The notes beneath the pieces were generated by a model. It was not told where the DNA came from and did no database searches. It was given only the letters and a program-made list of their open reading frames with translations. 64,000 bases of DNA from the NCBI RefSeq assembly GCF_044324875.1, contig NZ_CP172185.1; one strand, written 5' to 3'. The translations under genes and the position numbers were made by a program. Origin of the DNA: Escherichia coli (GTDB taxonomy: Bacteria > Pseudomonadota > Gammaproteobacteria > Enterobacterales > Enterobacteriaceae). Below, piece by piece: positions 2,733 through 59,357 of the stretch (position 1 is its first letter; every line of letters starts with the position of its first letter).

Positions 2733-3464
2733 ATGAACCAACCAATACACAATGCTTACTGGTTATCCCGTTTTGACAGCCTGCTCGACAGTGCCCTGGC
2801 GCAACACCGTGCCGTCTCGTTCATCCGGGTGGATTTACGGTTTCCTGAGTATATGCCTGCCACCATCATGGACTCCGGGCCGGATTCAGCGGTGATTTCC
2901 CGTTTTTTCGCCTCCCTGAAAGCCAAAATTCAGGCTTACCAGCAGCATAAGCGACGTACCAGTCAGCGTGTGCATGCAACCAGCCTGCGTTATTTCTGGT
3001 GCCGGGAGTTCGGAGAGGAAGAAAACAGGAAACATTATCACGTGATATTACTGCTCAACAAAGATACCTGGTGCTCGCTCGGGGATTTCAGCGAACCATC
3101 TTCGCTGGCGGCGATGATCCAGGAGGCATGGTGCAGCGCTCTGCATCTTGAGCCCTGGCAAGGCGATGGTCTGGTCCATTTTTCCAGGTGGAAGCCTTTT
3201 CGTAAACCAGCATCGTCTGATGCCCGTCCTTCTTCCGGTGACACCCCTTTGTCGGGTGGATGTTCTGATACCAGGAAGGCTGCAGACAAAAAGCCGGGTG
3301 AAGCCGCTGTTCTCTGGATCAAGCGTGGTGATGTGGCAGCGATGCAGAAAGCCCGGAAAAGAGCCCGTTATCTCGTGAAAAATCAAACGAAGCAGCATGA
3401 CGGTTCTGGTCAACGTAATTATGGTTGCAGCCGTGGGCCGGGGCGTCTGCTGGATGGCAGGTGA
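2733..3464 (+). CDS. YagK/YfjJ-family protein (inovirus Gp2-like, prophage-associated)
   Basis: 243-aa ORF with VSFIRVDLRFP and HYHVILLLNKD signature segments recalled from CP4 prophage YagK/YfjJ proteins. Confidence 0.6.
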   Translation: MNQPIHNAYWLSRFDSLLDSALAQHRAVSFIRVDLRFPEYMPATIMDSGPDSAVISRFFASLKAKIQAYQQHKRRTSQRVHATSLRYFWCREFGEEENRKHYHVILLLNKDTWCSLGDFSEPSSLAAMIQEAWCSALHLEPWQGDGLVHFSRWKPFRKPASSDARPSSGDTPLSGGCSDTRKAADKKPGEAAVLWIKRGDVAAMQKARKRARYLVKNQTKQHDGSGQRNYGCSRGPGRLLDGR

Positions 3465-3974
3465 AGTCTGTAAAACGGTATCCGGTGCCAGGGGGGGGAT
3501 ATCACGGTAAGGGCGTCAGCCAACGTCTTTCGCTCGTATTCTGATAACCCGTCCTGAAGTCATGTATCTGCTTCCATTCTCATGTTCATATTTCTCTGAC
3601 GCTTTCACTGTCTGTCATCGGAAGTACCGATTTATTTTGGTGCTGCGCACTTACGGCCATTCACGGAAGAGGATTGTGGTGAACAGTAGGAGTCTGGCTG
3701 CTGGCGAGGGAAGGTTCAGGACTGGTATGGGGTTTAGTGCTGGAGGATGACTTTGAATCCCGGATTGACCAGTGAGGGGGCAGTGAGAGGATGCTCTGGT
3801 GTAACAGGTCTGGATTACAAAATATAAAACCGGTTGTACACTCGTAACGGGTAAAAGGATACGGGCAATAACACGTGGTACCCGGTGAGACTGGCTCTTG
3901 TATCACATTACCGGGAATATTCTGGCAGGTGAAATGTTCTGATAAGAATCATCCTGAGGGAGGATACAACGGAT

Positions 3975-4427
3975 ATGAACGTTATTGACAGCCGCATTCG
4001 TGATGTGAAATTTGGTGAAAATGTGAAAGTCGTCATGCCAGTAAACCTCTATGAATGTGAACTGGGGGATGATGTTTTTATCGGTCCCTTTGTGGAAATA
4101 CAGAAGGGATGCATCATTGGCAACCGGAGCCGAATTCAGTCCCACAGTTTCATCTGTGAGAACGTCATTTTAGGTGATGCCTGTTTCATCGGTCATGGCG
4201 TAACTTTTCCTAATGATCTGTTTAAGTGTGGTGGTCCCGATACCTCTGCAGAAAGCTGGATACGCATCGTATTAGGTAACACTGTAACAGTGGGTAGTGG
4301 AGCGACCATTTTAACAACAGAAATTTGCAGTGGAGCTGTGATTGGTGCTGGTAGTGTGGTTACAAAGCCCGTGCTGGTAAAAGGCGTGTATGCGGGTAAT
4401 CCGGCCAGACTTTTGAGAACGCTTTAA
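3975..4427 (+). CDS. hexapeptide-repeat (left-handed beta-helix) acyl/acetyltransferase
   Basis: 150-aa ORF with repeated [LIV]G-x-x-x-x hexapeptide pattern (IGNRSRIQSHSFI, IGHGVTF, VGSGATI, IGAGSVV). Confidence 0.6.
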   Translation: MNVIDSRIRDVKFGENVKVVMPVNLYECELGDDVFIGPFVEIQKGCIIGNRSRIQSHSFICENVILGDACFIGHGVTFPNDLFKCGGPDTSAESWIRIVLGNTVTVGSGATILTTEICSGAVIGAGSVVTKPVLVKGVYAGNPARLLRTL

Positions 4428-4678
4428 TTATTGAATCCAATATTAAACCAGACAGACAGTAAACATAATACTGTTCCGGATATCGCTTGCCGCAGGAACC
4501 TCCTTAACATTCAGGAAAATAAAGCTTTTATTGCTGCTATGTACCATAAGAGACAGAAGTAATTGATTTACCAGTATTACACCTGTTGAAGCTATGGTTA
4601 TTCACCTTTTATTTTTTGAGCAGCGTATTTATACTTCCCGGAGCATTGTTTAAATATAATCGCCCGGGATTGATTCGT

Positions 4679-5584
4679 ATGGCTCTTGAACAGGAAATCG
4701 CAAACCTTGTAAACGAGTTTGTCGCGGCTGGTCGTCCATCCTGTCGTGACCAGACCTTTGATGAACGCCGTGCCGGATATATCGCAAGTACTGCTCTGGC
4801 CGGCGATACAGAAACCCGCGTAAACATCAGTGATGTGATTATTGACGATGTTTTATTGCGCATATTTTCGCCTTTAAACGATGATGGGGTGTTATCCGCA
4901 ATTGTCTATTATCATGGTGGCTGTTTTGTCAGTGGTGGTTTTGTAACCCATGATAATCAGTTGCGACAGCTTGCTTTCCTGAGCGGTTGTCGTGTCATTG
5001 CTGTACAATATCGATTAACGCCGGAACATATTTATCCTGCGGCACATGACGATGCTGAACATGCCGCTAATATTGTGTGGCAACACGCAGAAATGTTGAA
5101 AGTTGATCGCAACAGAATAACGTTAATGGGGGATAGCGCTGGGGGACATCTTGCACTGATAACAGCACTGCGGGTTAAAAACATCGGTCAGTGGTTACCG
5201 CGAAAATTAATACTTATTTACCCTATGCTGGATGCCACAGCATCATGTGATAGTTACAAATTAAACGGTAGTGACTATGTGCTGACAGCAGACACGTTTC
5301 TTAGTGGTTATGAGGCTTATTTTTCCGGTCAGGATTTAGAACATCCGGAAGTGAGTCCATTATTCAGGAATGATTTCAATGGGTTACCACCTGTTCATGT
5401 CATCACAGCGGAATATGACCCATTACGCGATGAAGGTGAGGAACTGTTTTCCCGTATGATTCAACAAGGAGTAAAGTGTACCGCCCAGCGTTATCTCGGT
5501 GTCATTCACGGTTTTTTCCAGCTTGGCGGCATTAGCCAGACAGCCCGTAATCTGATGCAGGATATTTGTGGGATTGTTAAATAA
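4679..5584 (+). CDS. alpha/beta-hydrolase esterase/lipase (Aes-like)
   Basis: HGGG-type oxyanion motif (YYHGGCF) and GDSAGG nucleophile elbow; start placed at first ATG after a TTG-initiated hydrophobic leader. Confidence 0.65.
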   Translation: MALEQEIANLVNEFVAAGRPSCRDQTFDERRAGYIASTALAGDTETRVNISDVIIDDVLLRIFSPLNDDGVLSAIVYYHGGCFVSGGFVTHDNQLRQLAFLSGCRVIAVQYRLTPEHIYPAAHDDAEHAANIVWQHAEMLKVDRNRITLMGDSAGGHLALITALRVKNIGQWLPRKLILIYPMLDATASCDSYKLNGSDYVLTADTFLSGYEAYFSGQDLEHPEVSPLFRNDFNGLPPVHVITAEYDPLRDEGEELFSRMIQQGVKCTAQRYLGVIHGFFQLGGISQTARNLMQDICGIVK

Positions 5585-5830
5585 TCACGTAACAAGCAGC
5601 TACAGGTAAATTAGCTGAGCATGCATCCATCATTTGTCGCTGCGATGCCAGACTTCCGGATGCTCATATGTTGTTTTACTTTTGTCAGCATAAATGCTGC
5701 GTCGGGACTGGTGAATGGAGATAAGCCATTTTATTATCGACGTCAGAGAACATACTCACAATGTCGGTATGTTTCTGAAATTAAGGGTAAGTTTTGCGCT
5801 GATTACAGTATGCGAAGGAGATCTGGCACA

Positions 5831-7423
5831 ATGAATCCCGCTTATATGCAATCCCCCCATTTCCCGGCAGATTTAACATACAGATTATTTCCTCGTAAGC
5901 TTGCGTATCTCATTGACGACTTATATGAAAGTACCCAACTTCCGCTGGATCTCATTTTTAATACTGTACTGGCAACGCTCTCACTCTCCTGTCAGTCATT
6001 GGTTGACGTTGTTCATCCTCACACCAACATGCCGGAACCCTGCTCACTTTATCTGTTGACAATCGCAGAGCCAGGCGCGGGAAAAACAACGATAAACAGA
6101 CTGGTGATGAACCCCTGTTACGACTTTGCCGATCGACTCATTCAACAATACGAAGAGAGAAACAAAGATTATAAAACTGAACTACAGATCTGGAATACCC
6201 GACAGAAAGCTCTTTCTGCCAGTTTAAGAAAGGCTATTAACCGGGGGTATCCGGGAGAACAGGAAGAAGAGGCGCTGCGTAATCACGAAAGAAATAAACC
6301 GACACGTCCGGTTCGACCGAATTTTATCTATGAAGATGTTTCACTTAAAGCGCTTGTGGAAGGACTCAACGAGCATCCGGAGGCGGGAGTTATTTCTGAT
6401 GAAGCGGTAACTTTTTTCAGAAGCTATCTGAAAAATAGTCCTGGTCTGTTGAATAAAGCATGGAGTGGACAACCGTTTGATTTTGGACGGGCTGACGAGA
6501 AATATCATATCACTCCACGCCTGACATTTTCGCTAATGTCCCAACCGGATGTTTTTACGGCTTATATAAATAAAAATGATGTACTGGCCAGGGGAAGCGG
6601 ATTTCTTTCCCGGTTTCTGTTCAGTCAGGTTGTAAGTTCTTCCTGGATACGTGATTATACGAGAGGTGAGTTCAGAACAATACCAACCCTGGAGAATTTT
6701 CATAAAAAGATTAACGGATTTCTGTTAAGCCATAACATTAATTCCCCCGGCATGAGCACCGAAAGGAAGACATTAAAACTTGCGAAGAAAGCGTTGGGGG
6801 AGTGGCAGGAAAACCAGAGTAAGATTGAAAGCAAAGCGCTTGCAGGAGGGGAGTGGGAACACATCAGAGATATTGTTCTGAAAGCAGGTTCTAATATACT
6901 GAGGATAGCGGGTTTATTCACCTTCTATGGCAATAAAGATGCTGAGGAAATTGAATCAATTGCGCTTTTTAACGCCATGCATCTCATGGACTGGTATCTG
7001 GAGGAGGCAAGCGCAATATTTTATCCCATGTCTGAGCGACGCCAGTTTGAGCAGGATGCCTGTGAACTGTATGCATGGATTATGACCCGAATCAGGCAGA
7101 ATAACTGGTGTGCTATCAGGAAAACAGATATTGAAAGATATGGTCCCAATCGACTGAGAAGAGCAGAAAAGCTTACACCTGTACTCAATCAGTTAATTGC
7201 TCAGAATTATTTCTGTATCATCAAAATGCGCTCGCATCAGGCACTTTATGTTTCTGTTCGTAACAATAATGGTTACCTCCTTCCTTTCGGCACAATGTCT
7301 TACGAACCGTTTGATGTTGTACCCTCCTTGTATAGTCATAATGCGAAAATATATCCCGTTAATATTCCACCGGAATTAATCCAGTCATTTGCGTTACCTT
7401 TTTCAGCCTATAACTTATTCTGA
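5831..7423 (+). CDS. P-loop NTPase, DUF3987/YfjI-like (P4 primase-associated helicase-like protein)
   Basis: Walker A AEPGAGKTT; RBS GGAG 10 nt upstream of ATG 5831; architecture recalls CP4-57 YfjI. Confidence 0.5.
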   Translation: MNPAYMQSPHFPADLTYRLFPRKLAYLIDDLYESTQLPLDLIFNTVLATLSLSCQSLVDVVHPHTNMPEPCSLYLLTIAEPGAGKTTINRLVMNPCYDFADRLIQQYEERNKDYKTELQIWNTRQKALSASLRKAINRGYPGEQEEEALRNHERNKPTRPVRPNFIYEDVSLKALVEGLNEHPEAGVISDEAVTFFRSYLKNSPGLLNKAWSGQPFDFGRADEKYHITPRLTFSLMSQPDVFTAYINKNDVLARGSGFLSRFLFSQVVSSSWIRDYTRGEFRTIPTLENFHKKINGFLLSHNINSPGMSTERKTLKLAKKALGEWQENQSKIESKALAGGEWEHIRDIVLKAGSNILRIAGLFTFYGNKDAEEIESIALFNAMHLMDWYLEEASAIFYPMSERRQFEQDACELYAWIMTRIRQNNWCAIRKTDIERYGPNRLRRAEKLTPVLNQLIAQNYFCIIKMRSHQALYVSVRNNNGYLLPFGTMSYEPFDVVPSLYSHNAKIYPVNIPPELIQSFALPFSAYNLF

Positions 7424-8202
7424 AATAAACCAACACAGATGAAACGAAAAAAAACAACATTCATTCGAAGGTTGGTGGTAAGGAGTTTGCATATCCTGCA
7501 TCTGTGCAAATATTCACCAGTTATGGGGCGCGAACGAAAATTTCTCTGAAAAAATCGCTACGGTAGCAACAGTAGCAGCACATGCACCATGTCTGTTATT
7601 TGATTTTGTTTTCATAATGACCTGTTGTCAAAGCTGATTGAATACAGGAGTGTGCGCACTGGTGGAAGAGTGGCTTTCGTTTTTGGTTATTCGAAAGAAA
7701 ATCGAAATATTGTTTTTAACATAGCTGAAGCTAATCATATAACCATATTTTTTGAGTTTTTATATATAACTTTGTTTGATTCTTGTCGTAATGAGTGCTG
7801 GCGTATATGACGATGTCGCTCTCTTTCTGAATAACGAAAGGTTATCAGTCTTTTACTGACAAGAGATGCTGTTCAGGTTTCAATGGGAGATTGAAGAAAA
7901 ACGATTTGATATTTTCCGTGAGAGAATGTCTTGTCAGGTTCATATTCATAACGGATAATTTCTTATTTTCACTCATCAGACATGGATAATTTTAATTTAG
8001 GTTTATTACTATAATTAGTATCTGTTCCTTTATTTTTATCCATCTATCCCTTTATTTTTCATCTATCTATCCTTTTATTATTAGTATCTGTATTTTTATT
8101 ATTGGCATCTGTCTATTTATTTTTATCATTCTCTCCTCTCTGTCTTTACTCTCATTGCTCTTACTCTCATTCTGTTATTTCTACTCGTGTTATCGTGTTC
8201 AC

Positions 8203-8234
8203 TCTATCACTCTATCACTCTATCACTCTATCAC
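8203..8234. repeat. 8-bp tandem repeat TCTATCAC x4 inside a ~300-bp low-complexity AT-rich tract
   Basis: direct reading of 7980-8260. Confidence 0.8.
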
Positions 8235-8985
8235 TCTATCCATCTCTCAATCATAACGATTGTCACTCATATGATACTCAGCCATGTTATTTTCTACTGC
8301 TCTGCTGAGCTTATCTGTCTGTTCTCATCTTCAGTGAAACAGCACCTGATTTTACTCTTATCCATCATGAACTGTCTTTGTTCAACGATGATGGTATGTC
8401 TGATATGTGTTAACCATTTTGATGGGTATCGTTGATTATCCGATGGTTAAGCTTCGATAAGGTTATCCATAGAACAGTGTGGGGTAAGCAACATGATCCC
8501 TGATGATATTTGTTCCGTGTTGTCTTGTTGTTTAAGCGACAGGAAATATGTCAATGGCATGTTTTATTCTGCTGCCGTGAGCCATGCATGTTCTGAAGAA
8601 CAGATTGAATGAGCGCATGTGAGTTTATTACGTTGGCCTTGTACACGTTTTTTTTAGAACCACTGAGAGCAAGTTTGTAGTTTATGATGCTATTGGTCGT
8701 AATATGTTTCTTGAACTTTTGATCGTGGGTTTTTATCTCGTATTTTTCAGCATTTCTCGGTGTTGTATTGCGTCGATATTTTCTTTATTCCCGTTAATAT
8801 CATCTCGTCAGTGTCCATTCCTTTCATCACAATGCGTATCGTTAATAATCTGTTGTATCCATCCGCCTACAGCATGCCTGATAAATACCGTCTGTCAGTT
8901 ATTACCGTTTTAGATCTGATTATGAGCGAAGGTATTCATTCGCTGACAGAACTTAAAACGTCATTAACTTACAGGAGTTATCAGC

Positions 8986-9552
8986 ATGCCTCAGTCTTAC
9001 ACACCAGACTGGTTTTTTACCGCCTTACTTGACCATCACATCGATCAAATGATGGCTCGCTATTCCTGTCTGCGGGCCTTACGGATGGATTTCTTCTACA
9101 GGAAAGAGACGCCTGATTTCTTACAACCTGATCACCGCTGGCTTGAATTGCAGTTGCGTATGCTGCTGGACCAGGTTGAACGGTTTGAAAATATGGTTGG
9201 TTTCTTCTGGGTGATTGAATGGACGGCTGATCATGGTTTTCATGCGCATGTGGTTTTCTGGATCGATCGTCAGAGGGTGAAAAAAATATATCCCTTTGCG
9301 GAGCGGATAACCGAATGCTGGCGGGCTATTACGTATAACTGTGGTTCGGCGCACCGCTGTACATACCAGCCGCATTATGCATACAACATCAACATTCCCG
9401 TGCGCCACAACGATCCTGAAAGCATCGATAATATTCGCGGTGCCCTGCATTATCTGGCGAAAGAAGAGCAAAAAGACGGACTGTGTGCATACGGCTGCAG
9501 CGAAGTGCCTGAACGTCCTGCTGCAGGGCGACCACGCAAGCTTCACGTCTGA
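8986..9552 (+). CDS. YagK/YfjJ-family protein (inovirus Gp2-like)
   Basis: 188-aa ORF, LRMDFFYRKE and FHAHVVFWIDR segments parallel to the 2733 ORF. Confidence 0.55.
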   Translation: MPQSYTPDWFFTALLDHHIDQMMARYSCLRALRMDFFYRKETPDFLQPDHRWLELQLRMLLDQVERFENMVGFFWVIEWTADHGFHAHVVFWIDRQRVKKIYPFAERITECWRAITYNCGSAHRCTYQPHYAYNINIPVRHNDPESIDNIRGALHYLAKEEQKDGLCAYGCSEVPERPAAGRPRKLHV

Positions 9553-11508: not shown

Positions 11509-14354
11509 ATGAAAATCTGTCTTTACCATACCCTGAATCCTGAAACGATCCCGGGCTATAAAAAGTTTGCGCAGGCCATTGAGGCAGATAATTTCGCGCA
11601 GGCGGATGTGCGTAAAATTGATACTAATCTCTACCGGGCACGCCTCAGTATCCGGGATCGGTTGTTGTTTTCACTTTACCGTTACCGTGGTGAGACGGTC
11701 TGCCTGGTACTGGAATATCTGCGTAACCATGCTTACCACACGTCACGTTTTCTGCGCAGGAATGTGGTGATCGACGAGGCGCGGCTGCAGCTGCAACCGG
11801 TGCCGGATCCGGCAGATGCAGACGCCGGTACACTGACGTATCTCAACCCCACTCACGGGCGTTTTCACTACCTGGATAAAATGCTCTCTTTTGATGATGA
11901 CCAGCAGGCGCTGTATGAACATCCGATGCCACTGGTGATTGTCGGCTCCGCCGGCAGCGGAAAGACGGCACTGTTACTGGAGAAAATGAAGCAGGCCGGG
12001 GGCGATATTCTGTATCTCAGCCTTTCGTCATTTCTGGTGGAAAAAGCCCGCACACTCTATCACGCATCTGGTGAAGAACATGACGGGCAGACCATTGATT
12101 TTCTGTCGCTGAGCGAGTTTCTGGAAACCCTGCGCATTCCGGAAGGGCGGGAGGTGACGTTCAGTGCGTTCAGCAACTGGCTGCCCCGCAACCGGACCAC
12201 CGCTGCACTGGGCTCTGGCCATACCCTGTATGAGGAATTTCGTGGTGTCATTGGTGCCGTTGCTTCTGACAACGGACCGCTGTCCCGGGAGGCGTATCTG
12301 TCGCTGGGAGTACGTCAGTCACTTTATGATATGGATGACCGTCCGGCGGTTTACGCCCTGTTTGAGCGTTATGTTGCATGGCTGAAACAGTCGCGTCAGT
12401 ATGACAGTAATCTTCTCAGCCACCAGTACCTGCCACTGGCCGGGCACCGTTATGATGTGGTTTTTGTGGATGAAGTGCAGGATATGACGCCTGTGCAGCT
12501 GCGGCTGGTTCTGAAAACCCTGCGTCATCCCGGTCAGTTTGTACTCTGCGGCGATGCCAATCAGATAGTTCATCCCAGCTTTTTTCCTGGAGTGCCCTCA
12601 AAAGCCTCTTTTTCCGGCAGCAACAGAACGAGGCTGCCGTGAATATTCTGCAGGCGAATTACCGTAACGGGCACCATGTCACCGCACTGGCTAACCGGCT
12701 GCTCAGACTTAAACTGGCCCGGTTCAGTGCCATTGACCGGGAAAGTCACCATTTTGTCAGAAGCTGCGGGCAGACGGAAGGCACCATCAGGCTGCTGGAA
12801 GACCGGGAAGCCACCCGCCATGAGCTGAACAGCAAAACCTCCCGCTCAAACCGTGTGGCGGTGATTGTGATGCAGCCGGAGCAGAAAGCACAGGCCCGGC
12901 GCTGGTTCAGTACACCGCTGGTTTTTTCGGTTCAGGAAGTGAAGGGGCTCGAGTACGAAACGGTGATCCTGTACAACATGGTCAGCAGTACCCGTAAGGC
13001 ATTTGATGATATCTGCGAAGGGATCAATCCGGCAGATCCTGAGGGTGAGGTGCGTTATGCCCACCCCCGGGACCGGCAGGATCGTTCAGCAGAAATCTAC
13101 AGGTTTTTCACCAACGCGCTGTATGTTGCGCTCACCCGTGCCACGCACAACGTGTACCTTGTTGAGCAGGAGGTGGCCCATCCGCTGTGGTCCCTGCTGG
13201 CCCTCACGCATCATGAAACGCAACTGGAGCTGCAGGAAGAGATTTCCAGCCGTGATGAGTGGCAGAAAACCGCTCACCTGCTGGAAAAACAGGGGAAGCA
13301 GGAGCAGGTGGACACCATCCGCAGTATGATCCTGCAGGAGTCAGAAGTACCGTGGCAGATCTTCAGCGCAGAGGATGCGCGGCAGTGGAAACAGCAGATC
13401 CTCAGCGGGACGGCGGACAAAGCCACGAAACTGCAGGCGCTGGAATACAGCCTGATTTATTCCCTGTTTCCGCTGTATAATGCGCTGTACCGGGAAGATT
13501 TTAAGCCCACAAGGCAGCCCCGGACCCGGAGCCAGCAGTTACTGGAGCAGAAGTATTTTCGTCCCTACTCAGTGAATAATCCGGTCGCCGTGCTGAGGGA
13601 TATTGAACGTTATGGTGTTGATCACCGCTCGCCGTTTAATCTTACGCCGCTGATGCTGGCAGCCCGGGCGGGGAACACGGCGCTGGTTCAGTTGCTGCTG
13701 GATCGTGGTGCCGATCCCACGCTGACGGCAAATGACGGGCTGGCGGCGTATCATCATGTTCTGTCAGCGGCGGTCAGCACGCCCCGTTATGCGCAGCAGA
13801 AGGGGGCACAACTCTATGCCTTGCCGGGACCGGAAAGCCTGTCACTGCAGGTGGAAGGGCGGCTTGTCAAACTGGACAACCGGCAGATGGCAATGTTTCT
13901 GGTGATCCTGATGCAGGCATTGTTTTACACGCATCTGGGGAATGCTCTGGTTTTTTCAGAAGCCTTCAGTGCGGCACGACTGGCAGAGTGTGTCGCCCAC
14001 TTTCCTGAAGCCCTGCTGCCGGAACGCCGCAGGCGGAGGAATTATATCAGCAGCCAGCTTTCTCAGCATGAAGTTAACAGCAAGAACCCTTATGGAAAAA
14101 AGCTGTTTCTGCGACTGAGGCATGGTCAGTATATTCTTAATCCGGGGCTGAAAATCAGGCAGAATGACGGGTGGTACCCGGTTTACGACTTGCAGTCACC
14201 GGAAGATCTCGGTCATGATTTACAGACGTATCTGCAGGACATGCCCCCGTACATTCTGGAGATTCTGGGGGGCAGGAAGGATGTTTACGAACAAAGTAAG
14301 GGGTCTGTCGGATACTGGGTGGCGATGATCCGCCGTCACAGTGGTGAGCCGTAA
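11509..14354 (+). pseudogene. UvrD/Rep-like SF1 helicase with C-terminal ankyrin repeats, split by a frameshift in a T6 tract (12580-12585)
   Basis: Walker A GSAGSGKT, motif II VFVDEVQD, motif III CGDANQ in frame 1; downstream NYRNG, ALTRATH motifs and ankyrin repeat (LTPLMLAARAGNTALVQLLLDRGADP) in frame 3; adding one T restores one ORF of about 947 aa. Confidence 0.7.
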
Positions 14355-58880: not shown

Positions 58881-58927
58881 GGTATTGACTTTCTTTGTGT
58901 GAGCTTTAAATATGGCAGGGCTAACTT

Positions 58928-59110
58928 GTCGCTCCGGCGACCACCAATGTTCCATAGTGGCCTGTGAGGAACGCCTTCGGGTGGCCCATGTCGCTTCAGC
59001 GACCACCAATGTTCCATGTGGCCTGTGAGGAACGCCTTCGGGTGGCCCACGTCGCTCCGGCGACCACCAATGCTTCATCTGACCTGTGAGGAGCGCCTTC
59101 GGGTGGTCAG
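58928..59110. repeat. three tandem ~61-bp repeats
   Basis: GTCGCTCCGGCGACCACCAATGTTCCAT-GTGGCCTGTGAGGAACGCCTTCGGGTGGCCCA x3 with a few substitutions. Confidence 0.8.
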
Positions 59111-59357
59111 TTTTACACCTCCTGAGCCTGAAAGGAGCTGTGCGTACTGAAGGGATATATTCCCGGAAGTACGGGCAAATCTGCACACCTTTGAGAGCAG
59201 ATGTCACTGCGGTTTTCCGTGATGATGAAGGCTTTTTTTACTGCACAGACAGCCGGAAATTCAGCTGATTCCGGCATCCCCGACGGGAACTATCACTCCC
59301 GTCAGGGCTGGTGATGTTCTCCGTCATATCTTTTTTTCACTCCATGGAGAAATCATC

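Follow-up and report, generated by a model that had tools for sequence, protein, structure and literature searches.

A gene-free, AT-rich spacer with an unstable tandem repeat ahead of a YagK-like gene in CP4-like islands of Escherichia coli

The protein H-NS targets AT-rich horizontally acquired DNA, and the termination factor Rho prefers C-rich, G-poor, unstructured, and untranslated RNA of ~80 nt or more. Silencing of AT-rich, horizontally acquired E. coli DNA by H-NS and by Rho, through Rho utilization (rut) sites, is among the described systems closest to the locus reported here, a gene-free, AT-rich gap of 1.56 kb (positions 7424–8985) in a 64,000-nt stretch of the E. coli contig NZ_CP172185.1 (hereafter the window). 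The gap is bordered on the left by a YfjI-family (DUF3987) gene (5621–7423, + strand; Pfam PF13148, E = 1.8e-75) and on the right by a gene encoding a 188-aa YagK/YfjJ (“inovirus Gp2”-type) protein (8986–9552, + strand), which we refer to as the YagK-like gene. We class the spacer as an uncharacterized example of a familiar type, the extended, AT-rich control region of a regulatory operon in an island, here with an unstable tandem repeat. The explanation that we place first, tentatively and at somewhat less than an even chance, is that the spacer controls the yagK-like/alpA module from its 5′ side and is silenced through its composition, by Rho loading and H-NS. A literature search found no paper describing this spacer.

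Several features of the spacer resemble those of rut-dependent and H-NS-Rho silencing. It is a long untranslated region of an AT-rich island and contains a tract that has 32 C vs. 6 G per 100 nt, whose sense strand is predicted to be unstructured and whose composition, rather than sequence, is conserved; no intrinsic terminator was found upstream of this tract. The tract differs from rut sites in being T-rich besides C-rich, in the lack of an operon polarity suppressor (ops) anti-termination signal, and in that a paralogous spacer of the same island is GT-rich; its Rho dependence is a prediction.

Two further systems resemble parts of the locus. Fold-back inhibition hairpins in the transposase mRNAs of the insertion sequences (IS) IS10, IS50, and IS200 hide the ribosome-binding site from read-through transcripts, and here too, in a strongly conserved and very stable structure, the AUG of a mobile-element gene and its Shine-Dalgarno sequence are predicted to pair with an upstream arm. 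Unlike for these elements, no internal promoter for a hairpin-free transcript was identified here, and the structure shows no covariation. Variable-number tandem repeats (VNTRs) of the kind used in multiple-locus VNTR analysis (MLVA), as well as contingency repeats, share with the spacer perfect tandem 8-bp copies that differ in number (5 vs. 11) between near-identical alleles, although the 8-bp array here lies outside coding region and promoter spacer and no on/off switch is evident. With perfect head-to-tail copies and copy-number polymorphism, the 8-bp array has the defining properties of a VNTR.

Zones and conserved signals of the spacer

GC content across 7424–8985 is 0.29–0.40, compared with 0.42–0.60 in the flanks, so that the gap shares with H-NS targets an AT richness extending over several hundred bp. 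An earlier note, made from the letters of this DNA, had described a 1.5-kb low-complexity, AT-rich tract with 8-bp tandem repeats between the DUF3987 and YagK-like genes, and had suggested either a decayed gene or a silencing region bound by nucleoid proteins. The location was borne out by Pfam matches and coordinates, while low complexity applies to ~330 nt (7980–8310) and the remainder of the 1.5 kb is ordinary AT-rich non-coding DNA. Several open reading frames (ORFs) of 60–90 codons are present in the gap; those at 8102–8308 and 8187–8435, with TTG/GTG starts, do encode the implausible Leu/Ser/Ile-rich peptides noted earlier (also rich in Tyr and His), and Pfam searches with five gap ORFs returned nothing significant (best match DUF2418, E = 0.14). 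In the 60 best E. coli records, the NCBI pipeline annotates no gene or pseudogene under the match. Across homologs of the gap, no ORF is conserved beyond 20–37 codons, and indels are many, with lengths that are not multiples of three. The comparison with homologs, set beforehand as a refuting test, found no intact gene and again a gene-free gap, of 0.65–1.6 kb (1.1–1.6 kb in the annotated homologs). The gap is therefore non-coding and contains no dead gene. A permissive Rfam 15 search (E ≤ 1) of 7000–9500 returned nothing relevant, its sole match being a chance-level snoRNA inside the YagK-like gene; an Rfam scan of the whole window at gathering thresholds gave no match in the gap, and no terminator-like site was found in 7424–8756.

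Zones were drawn from an alignment of five BLAST-derived sequences and then from 31 unique sequences, and additional alleles were obtained by scanning metagenome contigs with 25 nt of a conserved block, giving 44 loci. Because these 25 nt served as bait, their invariance is circular in the 44-locus set; the invariance of the block was therefore checked on loci retrieved via the YagK end only (L006, L009, L057, L058, and L060). Zone I (7424–7960) is a non-coding 3′ flank inherited with yfjI, with more G than C, frame-breaking indels, and no terminator-like site. It is found only in yfjI-bearing loci, where its identity is 82–86% vs. 89–92% for the yfjI gene. Zone II (7961–8017, + strand) is a near-invariant AT block and a candidate promoter or protein-binding site. 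It is invariant in the five-sequence alignment; its core, TTTTAATTTAGGTTTATTACTATAATTA at 7990–8017, is unique in the window, and the core TTTTAATTTAGGTTTATTACTAT[A/T]ATTA is kept where the left side is replaced by IS3, a sugar-kinase gene, or a TIR-domain gene. A perfect TATAAT hexamer lies at 8010–8015, with a poor −35 region in which no element is usable, and zone III begins within a few bases of this hexamer.

Zone III (8017–8250, + strand) is a hypervariable, pyrimidine-rich, and G-poor tract with a recurrent TCACTC/TTACTC motif, and nowhere else in the window is the bias of C over G as strong. The excess of C over G peaks within the whole 64-kb window at 8111–8310, at +26 per 100 nt against a mean of −3.7 (sd 7.9), well beyond what chance would give, and 14 of the 15 lowest-G 100-nt windows fall inside 7981–8300, each with 5–7 G per 100 nt; at 8121–8310 there are 30–32 C vs. 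6–7 G per 100 nt, again the extreme of the window. The same composition recurs among the 31 variants, in which, on the strand that carries the flanking genes, the 200 nt after the AT block are 65–77% pyrimidine, with 3–11% G and 19–30% C. The zone is 70–284 nt long where it can be delimited (29/31 variants), and the G-poorest stretch is always located ~900–990 nt before the YagK-like start codon, both in these variants and in the loci retrieved without bias. RNA of 8017–8316 is predicted to be unstructured (folding z = −0.82), and consensus RNA folding of 8025–8860 yields ~0 kcal/mol on either strand. If transcribed rightward, the tract would provide at least ~80 nt of C-rich, G-poor RNA with no stable secondary structure in predicted folding, as expected of a rut site. 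What the family shares is the composition of the tract and not the sequence of its repeats.

The repeats that first drew attention are confined to this zone. The 8-bp tandem repeat TCACTCTA (or TCTATCAC in another register; 8199–8240, + strand) was recovered by Tandem Repeats Finder with period 8, 5.2 copies, and 100% matches, in agreement with the earlier note, and the CATCTATCC-type iterations mentioned there correspond to ~5 copies of 21–23-bp repeats (ATCTRT...TTTATTTTT; 8019–8129, + strand), namely a 23-bp repeat ×2.9 at 8019–8083 and a 21-bp repeat ×2.7 at 8073–8129. What that note had missed is that this lineage alone has the repeats, and that constraint is found instead in the AT block, in TATCCAT boxes, and in a hairpin at the gene start. 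The alignment columns of the 21–23-bp units (8065–8124) and of the 8-mer array (8205–8240) are 94% gaps in other variants, and the repeats are present only in this allele and in that of E. coli LH50-c (NZ_CP100500.1, 968057–969704). The latter has 11 copies of the 8-mer vs. 5 here, in alleles otherwise 99.9% identical over 7963–8985. The repeats, limited to these two alleles and, in the 8-mer, differing between 5 and 11 copies, are products of slippage, slipped-strand expansions that form a VNTR.

Synonymous divergence of the adjacent YagK-like gene (253 pairs) was used as a neutral yardstick for the rates at which the zones evolve. Compared with synonymous sites (pS 0.08–0.145), zone III diverges faster (0.22–0.26, plus massive indels), and the repeat tract stands out as a hot spot of mutation. 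In zone III, substitutions toward G are 2–3 times rarer than their strand-symmetric counterparts, an asymmetry that zone IV lacks; with small counts and poor alignment, it is suggestive only. Zone IV (8251–8860, + strand), an AT-rich, unstructured spacer with short conserved blocks of up to 35 nt, diverges by 0.125–0.16, about the synonymous rate, and therefore most of the spacer drifts about neutrally. More than 300 nt of it are deleted in some alleles (651-nt variants), while the spacer is ~970–1000 nt long in most variants. Zone V (8861–8985, + strand), by comparison, is a strongly constrained and almost invariant leader with a divergence of 0.02–0.04, 4–5 times slower than synonymous sites.

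The heptamer TATCCAT (ATGGATA) is the top recurrent 7-mer of the spacer, with at least 3 copies in 30 of the 31 variants. Six of its nine copies in the 64-kb window lie between 7982 and 8862 (7982–7988 on the − strand; 8037, 8237, 8359, 8464, and 8856 on the + strand), so that the first copy, in the AT block, is inverted relative to the others. Local dinucleotide shuffles gave 0.34 expected copies, and none of 5000 reached six. Across loci, its density is 4.57 per kb inside the spacer vs. 0.12 per kb outside, a 38-fold enrichment, and copies fall within the best conserved blocks of zone IV at homologous positions. The motif was found post hoc and survives a Bonferroni correction for all 7-mers (~0.01). 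The boxes, mapped here as an array of candidate protein-binding sites, are probably sites for a DNA-binding protein. A comparison of TATCCAT with known regulators gave no match. On inspection, the reading of TTATCCAT as a DnaA box was rejected for mismatches at the two most conserved 3′ positions of TTATCCACA, and readings of the boxes or block as HipB (TATCC-N8-GGATA), LexA, IHF, Fur, or AggR/Rns-type sites were set aside by eye for unfit spacing or orientation.

At the right end of the spacer, a long imperfect hairpin is predicted at 8872–8990 (+ strand; −41.2 kcal/mol, z = −4.55 in a single-sequence fold). Its 3′ arm includes the AUG of the YagK-like gene and the Shine-Dalgarno sequence before it, both paired with the upstream arm, and the consensus of 16 variants retains 38 pairs at −26.8 kcal/mol. 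The predicted structure is consistent with translational control, short of proof by covariation.

Two motifs can be read from the translation of the gene downstream, one HUH-like (GFHAHVVFW) and one of the YxxK type (HYLAKE). Its Pfam matches, REP_ORF2-G2P (E = 7.5e-6) and YagK_YfjJ_C (E = 8.3e-5), are both just under the gathering score, and no solved structure related by sequence was found. The gene is frameshifted in several carriers. Searches of PADLOC and NCBIfam gave no match for YfjI or for either Gp2-like protein of the island.

Distribution and linkage of the spacer

Among 5426 complete E. coli genomes, 1565 (~29%) have the region in full or in part, at up to five places per genome. 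A ~1-kb unannotated region held by so many genomes is of interest because it precedes the most conserved regulatory genes (YagK-like and AlpA-like) of pathogenicity-island-type elements, and because it stands directly to the right of a slot for swapped cargo genes, candidate anti-phage genes included. Deciding whether it is a silencer or insulator, or a site of replication or transfer, would clarify how islands are silenced and how they move. What is informative in it is the invariant block, together with the TATCCAT boxes and the gene-start hairpin; the conspicuous repeats are an unstable by-product.

The spacer follows the gene on its right rather than the gene on its left. YfjI is a non-obligatory partner, with other genes in its position in about half of related loci; where yfjI is absent, the block is preceded by a 288-aa, 274-aa, or 341-aa gene or by an H-NS-like fragment. 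Zones II–V are found behind several upstream contexts, divergently oriented genes included, and this variety indicates that they belong to the YagK-like gene and not to yfjI. Zones II–V (7961–8985, the right two-thirds of the gap) are always attached to the YagK-like gene, and across CP4-like pathogenicity islands they travel with it and with the hypothetical-protein and AlpA-like genes that follow, irrespective of the sequence on their left. The window is island DNA of E. coli type, and its first 25 kb is 98.4% identical to strain LH50-c over 64% of its length.

Matches to the spacer were found in only 12 of 72,556 plasmids, all of them island fragments; phages gave no match to the spacer at blastn sensitivity, and exact-pattern scans of viral contigs found nothing. 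When species-representative genomes were scanned with the YagK-like protein, two loci only were recovered. In O157 Sakai, the spacer is absent from the part of SpLE1 at 1,400,001–1,450,000. Two candidate equivalents in K-12 were rejected, CP4-57 for a yfjI-yfjJ gap of only 150 bp and CP4-6 for a short region upstream of yagK with no boxes; the region upstream of K-12 yfjJ is also short and free of TATCCAT boxes.

The spacer is repeatedly truncated by elements of the IS3, IS2, and IS66 families that have inserted within it or at its edge, as in L007 (CFT073), L057, L059, and L061. What still matches in CFT073 is no more than the final ~185 nt of the query (~170 nt upstream of the YagK-like start), and ~320 nt separate the IS3 element from the start of the YagK-like gene. 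A distant YagK-like homolog is encoded in Budvicia aquatica (L010; 36% amino-acid identity), where ~1.3 kb of AT-rich sequence (3651–4983) lies upstream, with no ORF of at least 70 codons and no CT-rich tract.

Competing explanations for the spacer

In the control-region reading, which we favor, the AT block would act as a promoter or operator. Rightward RNA from the block, or read-through from upstream cargo that has no intrinsic terminator, would enter the G-poor tract, and the transcript would open with 150–300 nt of unstructured, C-rich, and G-poor RNA, an ideal Rho entry site. The ~1-kb untranslated, AT-rich leader would then be terminated by Rho and coated by H-NS, leaving the YagK/AlpA module silent and insulated. 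Leftover transcripts would be masked translationally by the hairpin, the opening of which could give specific control, and a protein at the TATCCAT boxes might relieve or reinforce silencing. Only the composition of the tract matters in this scheme, and its sequence and length would therefore be free to change. Silencing by nucleoid proteins, as the earlier note had proposed, is plausible from the AT content. In the curvature check proposed along with it, the repeat tract was not singled out (11th–60th percentile of the window); a wedge model placed only 7706–7826 and 8606–8726 within the lowest 5% of the window and found ordinary A-tract phasing over the repeats. Within the gap, the sole match to the RfaH ops element GGCGGTAGNNTG with up to two mismatches (GGTGGAAGAGTG, 7661–7672) breaks the CGGTAG core and was rejected as an ops site in the leader, and ops-like matches across the window are at chance level (44 observed vs. 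40 expected).

A number of observations weigh against the control-region reading. Intrinsic curvature or phased A-tracts, a property of H-NS targets, is not seen over the repeat tract. The direction of transcription is assumed from the orientation of the flanking genes, and a consensus promoter scan does not call the AT block, which has a perfect −10 and essentially no −35. Zone IV drifts neutrally, some copies lack part of it, and IS elements are often found in the spacer, so that much of it may lack function. The G-poor composition could persist simply because slippage copies CT-rich units, and the substitution asymmetry comes from a region that aligns poorly and gives small counts. The Budvicia homolog has a long AT-rich upstream region with no CT-rich tract, and the repeat of the paralogous Gp2 spacer is GT-rich and not rut-like. 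The hairpin shows 0 compensatory pairs and 11 one-sided GC-to-GU changes, and 13 nt of its 5′ arm are deleted in two variants.

A first alternative is that the spacer is mostly functionless, an explanation that we judge unlikely, though more probable than the other alternatives. Only the promoter-proximal block and the last 125 nt ahead of the start codon would then be more than neutral AT-rich filler, and the composition would be inherited while slipped-strand mispairing keeps making and deleting CT-rich repeats. The rates agree with this, zone IV diverging as fast as synonymous sites or slightly faster and zone III faster still, as do the large deletions of the 651-nt variants, the frequent IS insertions, the lineage-specific repeats with their variable copy number, and the lack of a CT-rich tract in the distant Budvicia homolog. 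Mere filler would not be expected to hold a G-poor tract in the same place and orientation in every variant despite 22–50% divergence and full turnover of its sequence, nor to show a depletion of G-ward substitutions in zone III only. The 38-fold enriched TATCCAT boxes are positionally conserved, and spacer length is held near 970–1000 nt in most variants, both of which argue in the same direction.

Filamentous phages have their origin in the non-coding DNA directly before gene II, and HUH rep genes have Rep-binding repeats upstream; by comparison with these, a further idea is that the spacer is a cis-acting platform, a rolling-circle origin or a site resembling an origin of transfer (oriT), for the HUH (Gp2-like) protein or for helper conjugation machinery. 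We consider this doubtful. The TATCCAT boxes would be initiator-binding repeats, the AT block or the gene-start hairpin would be the site of nicking or unwinding, and a separate TAAGTGTT array would serve the paralogous Gp2 gene. In its favor, iterated boxes and a long inverted repeat lie immediately upstream of a Gp2/HUH-type gene, together with an invariant block; the downstream gene encodes HUH-like and YxxK motifs, with weak Pfam matches to Rep/G2P, and the paralogous 243-aa Gp2 gene is likewise preceded by an AT-rich, gene-free region with a different iterated motif, its own box type. We know of no nick consensus for the YagK-like family, and the spacer contains no recognizable nick-site consensus or GC-rich stem. 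HUH origins are usually <200 bp, whereas the spacer, at ~1 kb, is about five times longer and largely neutral in sequence. It has no similarity to plasmid oriT or replication origins (oriV) or to phage at blastn sensitivity, the YagK-like gene is frameshifted in several carriers, and the regions upstream of yfjJ and yagK in K-12 are short and without boxes. Many E. coli pathogenicity islands are reported, in a 2026 preprint, to carry oriT mimics without a relaxase (bioRxiv 10.64898/2026.01.13.699239), which speaks for a platform. If this explanation were true, “immobile” CP4-like islands would be able to spread by a rolling-circle or oriT-like mechanism.

That the gap contains an unannotated gene for a small RNA or a small protein seems very improbable. 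Such a gene might account for the conserved zone IV blocks of up to 35 nt, for some ORFs of 20–37 codons that are kept in position, and for a 36-codon upstream ORF (8922–9032) that overlaps the YagK start. Rfam gave nothing relevant at E ≤ 1, no conserved RNA structure was found in 8250–8860 on either strand, and there is no convincing terminator; the ORFs have no Shine-Dalgarno sequence, vary in length among variants, and change mostly at non-synonymous sites. The PapR small RNA was considered as a candidate and set aside, since it is located outside the pap island.

We give even less credence to an origin of the type found in phage-inducible chromosomal islands (PICIs) and Staphylococcus aureus pathogenicity islands (SaPIs), in which helicase-like DUF3987 (YfjI) would bind repeats 3′ of its own gene and melt AT-rich DNA. 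AT-rich, short-repeat DNA does lie downstream of a helicase-like DUF3987 gene on a chromosomal island here, but the repeats are not gene-adjacent, starting ~590 nt past the yfjI stop codon, and are missing from other yfjI alleles whose YfjI genes are ~91–92% identical (DNA). The tract and block stay with the downstream gene in the roughly half of loci that have no yfjI. There are no conserved paired iteron sets around an AT-rich core, and zone I, the sole yfjI-linked part, has no iterons. Two defining features of the PICI class, paired iterons 3′ of the initiator and co-inheritance with it, were tested and are lacking, which places the spacer outside that class.

A decayed protein-coding gene, suggested by the length of the gap and its several 60–90-codon ORFs, is the least credible explanation, with close to no prospect of being right, as these ORFs are by-products of stop-poor, CT-rich sequence with no significant Pfam match, no pseudogene called in the 60 best annotated genomes, and no homolog in which the gene is intact.

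The cargo slot and neighboring features

To the left of the invariant block, a variable cargo slot (3465–7960) extends from the 243-aa Gp2 gene to the block. Here it holds an acyltransferase, a hydrolase, and YfjI, while relatives have YfjI alone, a 288-aa or 274-aa protein, or an H-NS-like fragment; equivalent stretches are found in L004, L005, L011, L017, L024, L028, L058, and L060. The cargo of L024 is a 341-aa protein that matches the PADLOC candidate defense family PDC-S33 (E = 9.3e-119). In L058 and L060, a sugar-kinase gene and a TIR-domain gene lie to the left of the block, and the 243-aa Gp2 gene was not seen there. The slot looks like a cargo or defense hotspot whose right boundary is the conserved block.

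The paralogous 243-aa Gp2 gene (2733–3464) also has a long, AT-rich, and gene-free upstream region. Its array consists of TAAGTGTT(T) units, ~7 copies in L002 (4437–4630) and a shorter version at 460–600 of the window, and the same spacer contains a GT-rich 7-bp tandem repeat, GTGGTTT/GAGTTTT (717–760 of the window). In L001 and L002 this AT-rich region adjoins divergently oriented GTPase/DUF932 genes. In the window it is separated from the 243-aa Gp2 gene by the insertion of an IS3-family element (1350–2563), which lies between the AT-rich array and the gene and has two overlapping ORFs and an rve integrase domain; an Rfam ALIL frameshifting pseudoknot is found within the element at 1631–1747 (116 bits).

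To the right of the YagK-like gene, a UvrD-like helicase is split into overlapping ORFs (11509–12642 and 12639–14354, together 11509–14354 of the window), the second with ankyrin repeats, and its counterpart in LH50-c is annotated as a frameshifted pseudogene. STAXI motifs are typical of the anti-restriction/ssb “leading-region”-type parts of mobile elements, and two adjacent Rfam STAXI copies (61.6 and 66.3 bits, + strand) are found at 58927–59233.

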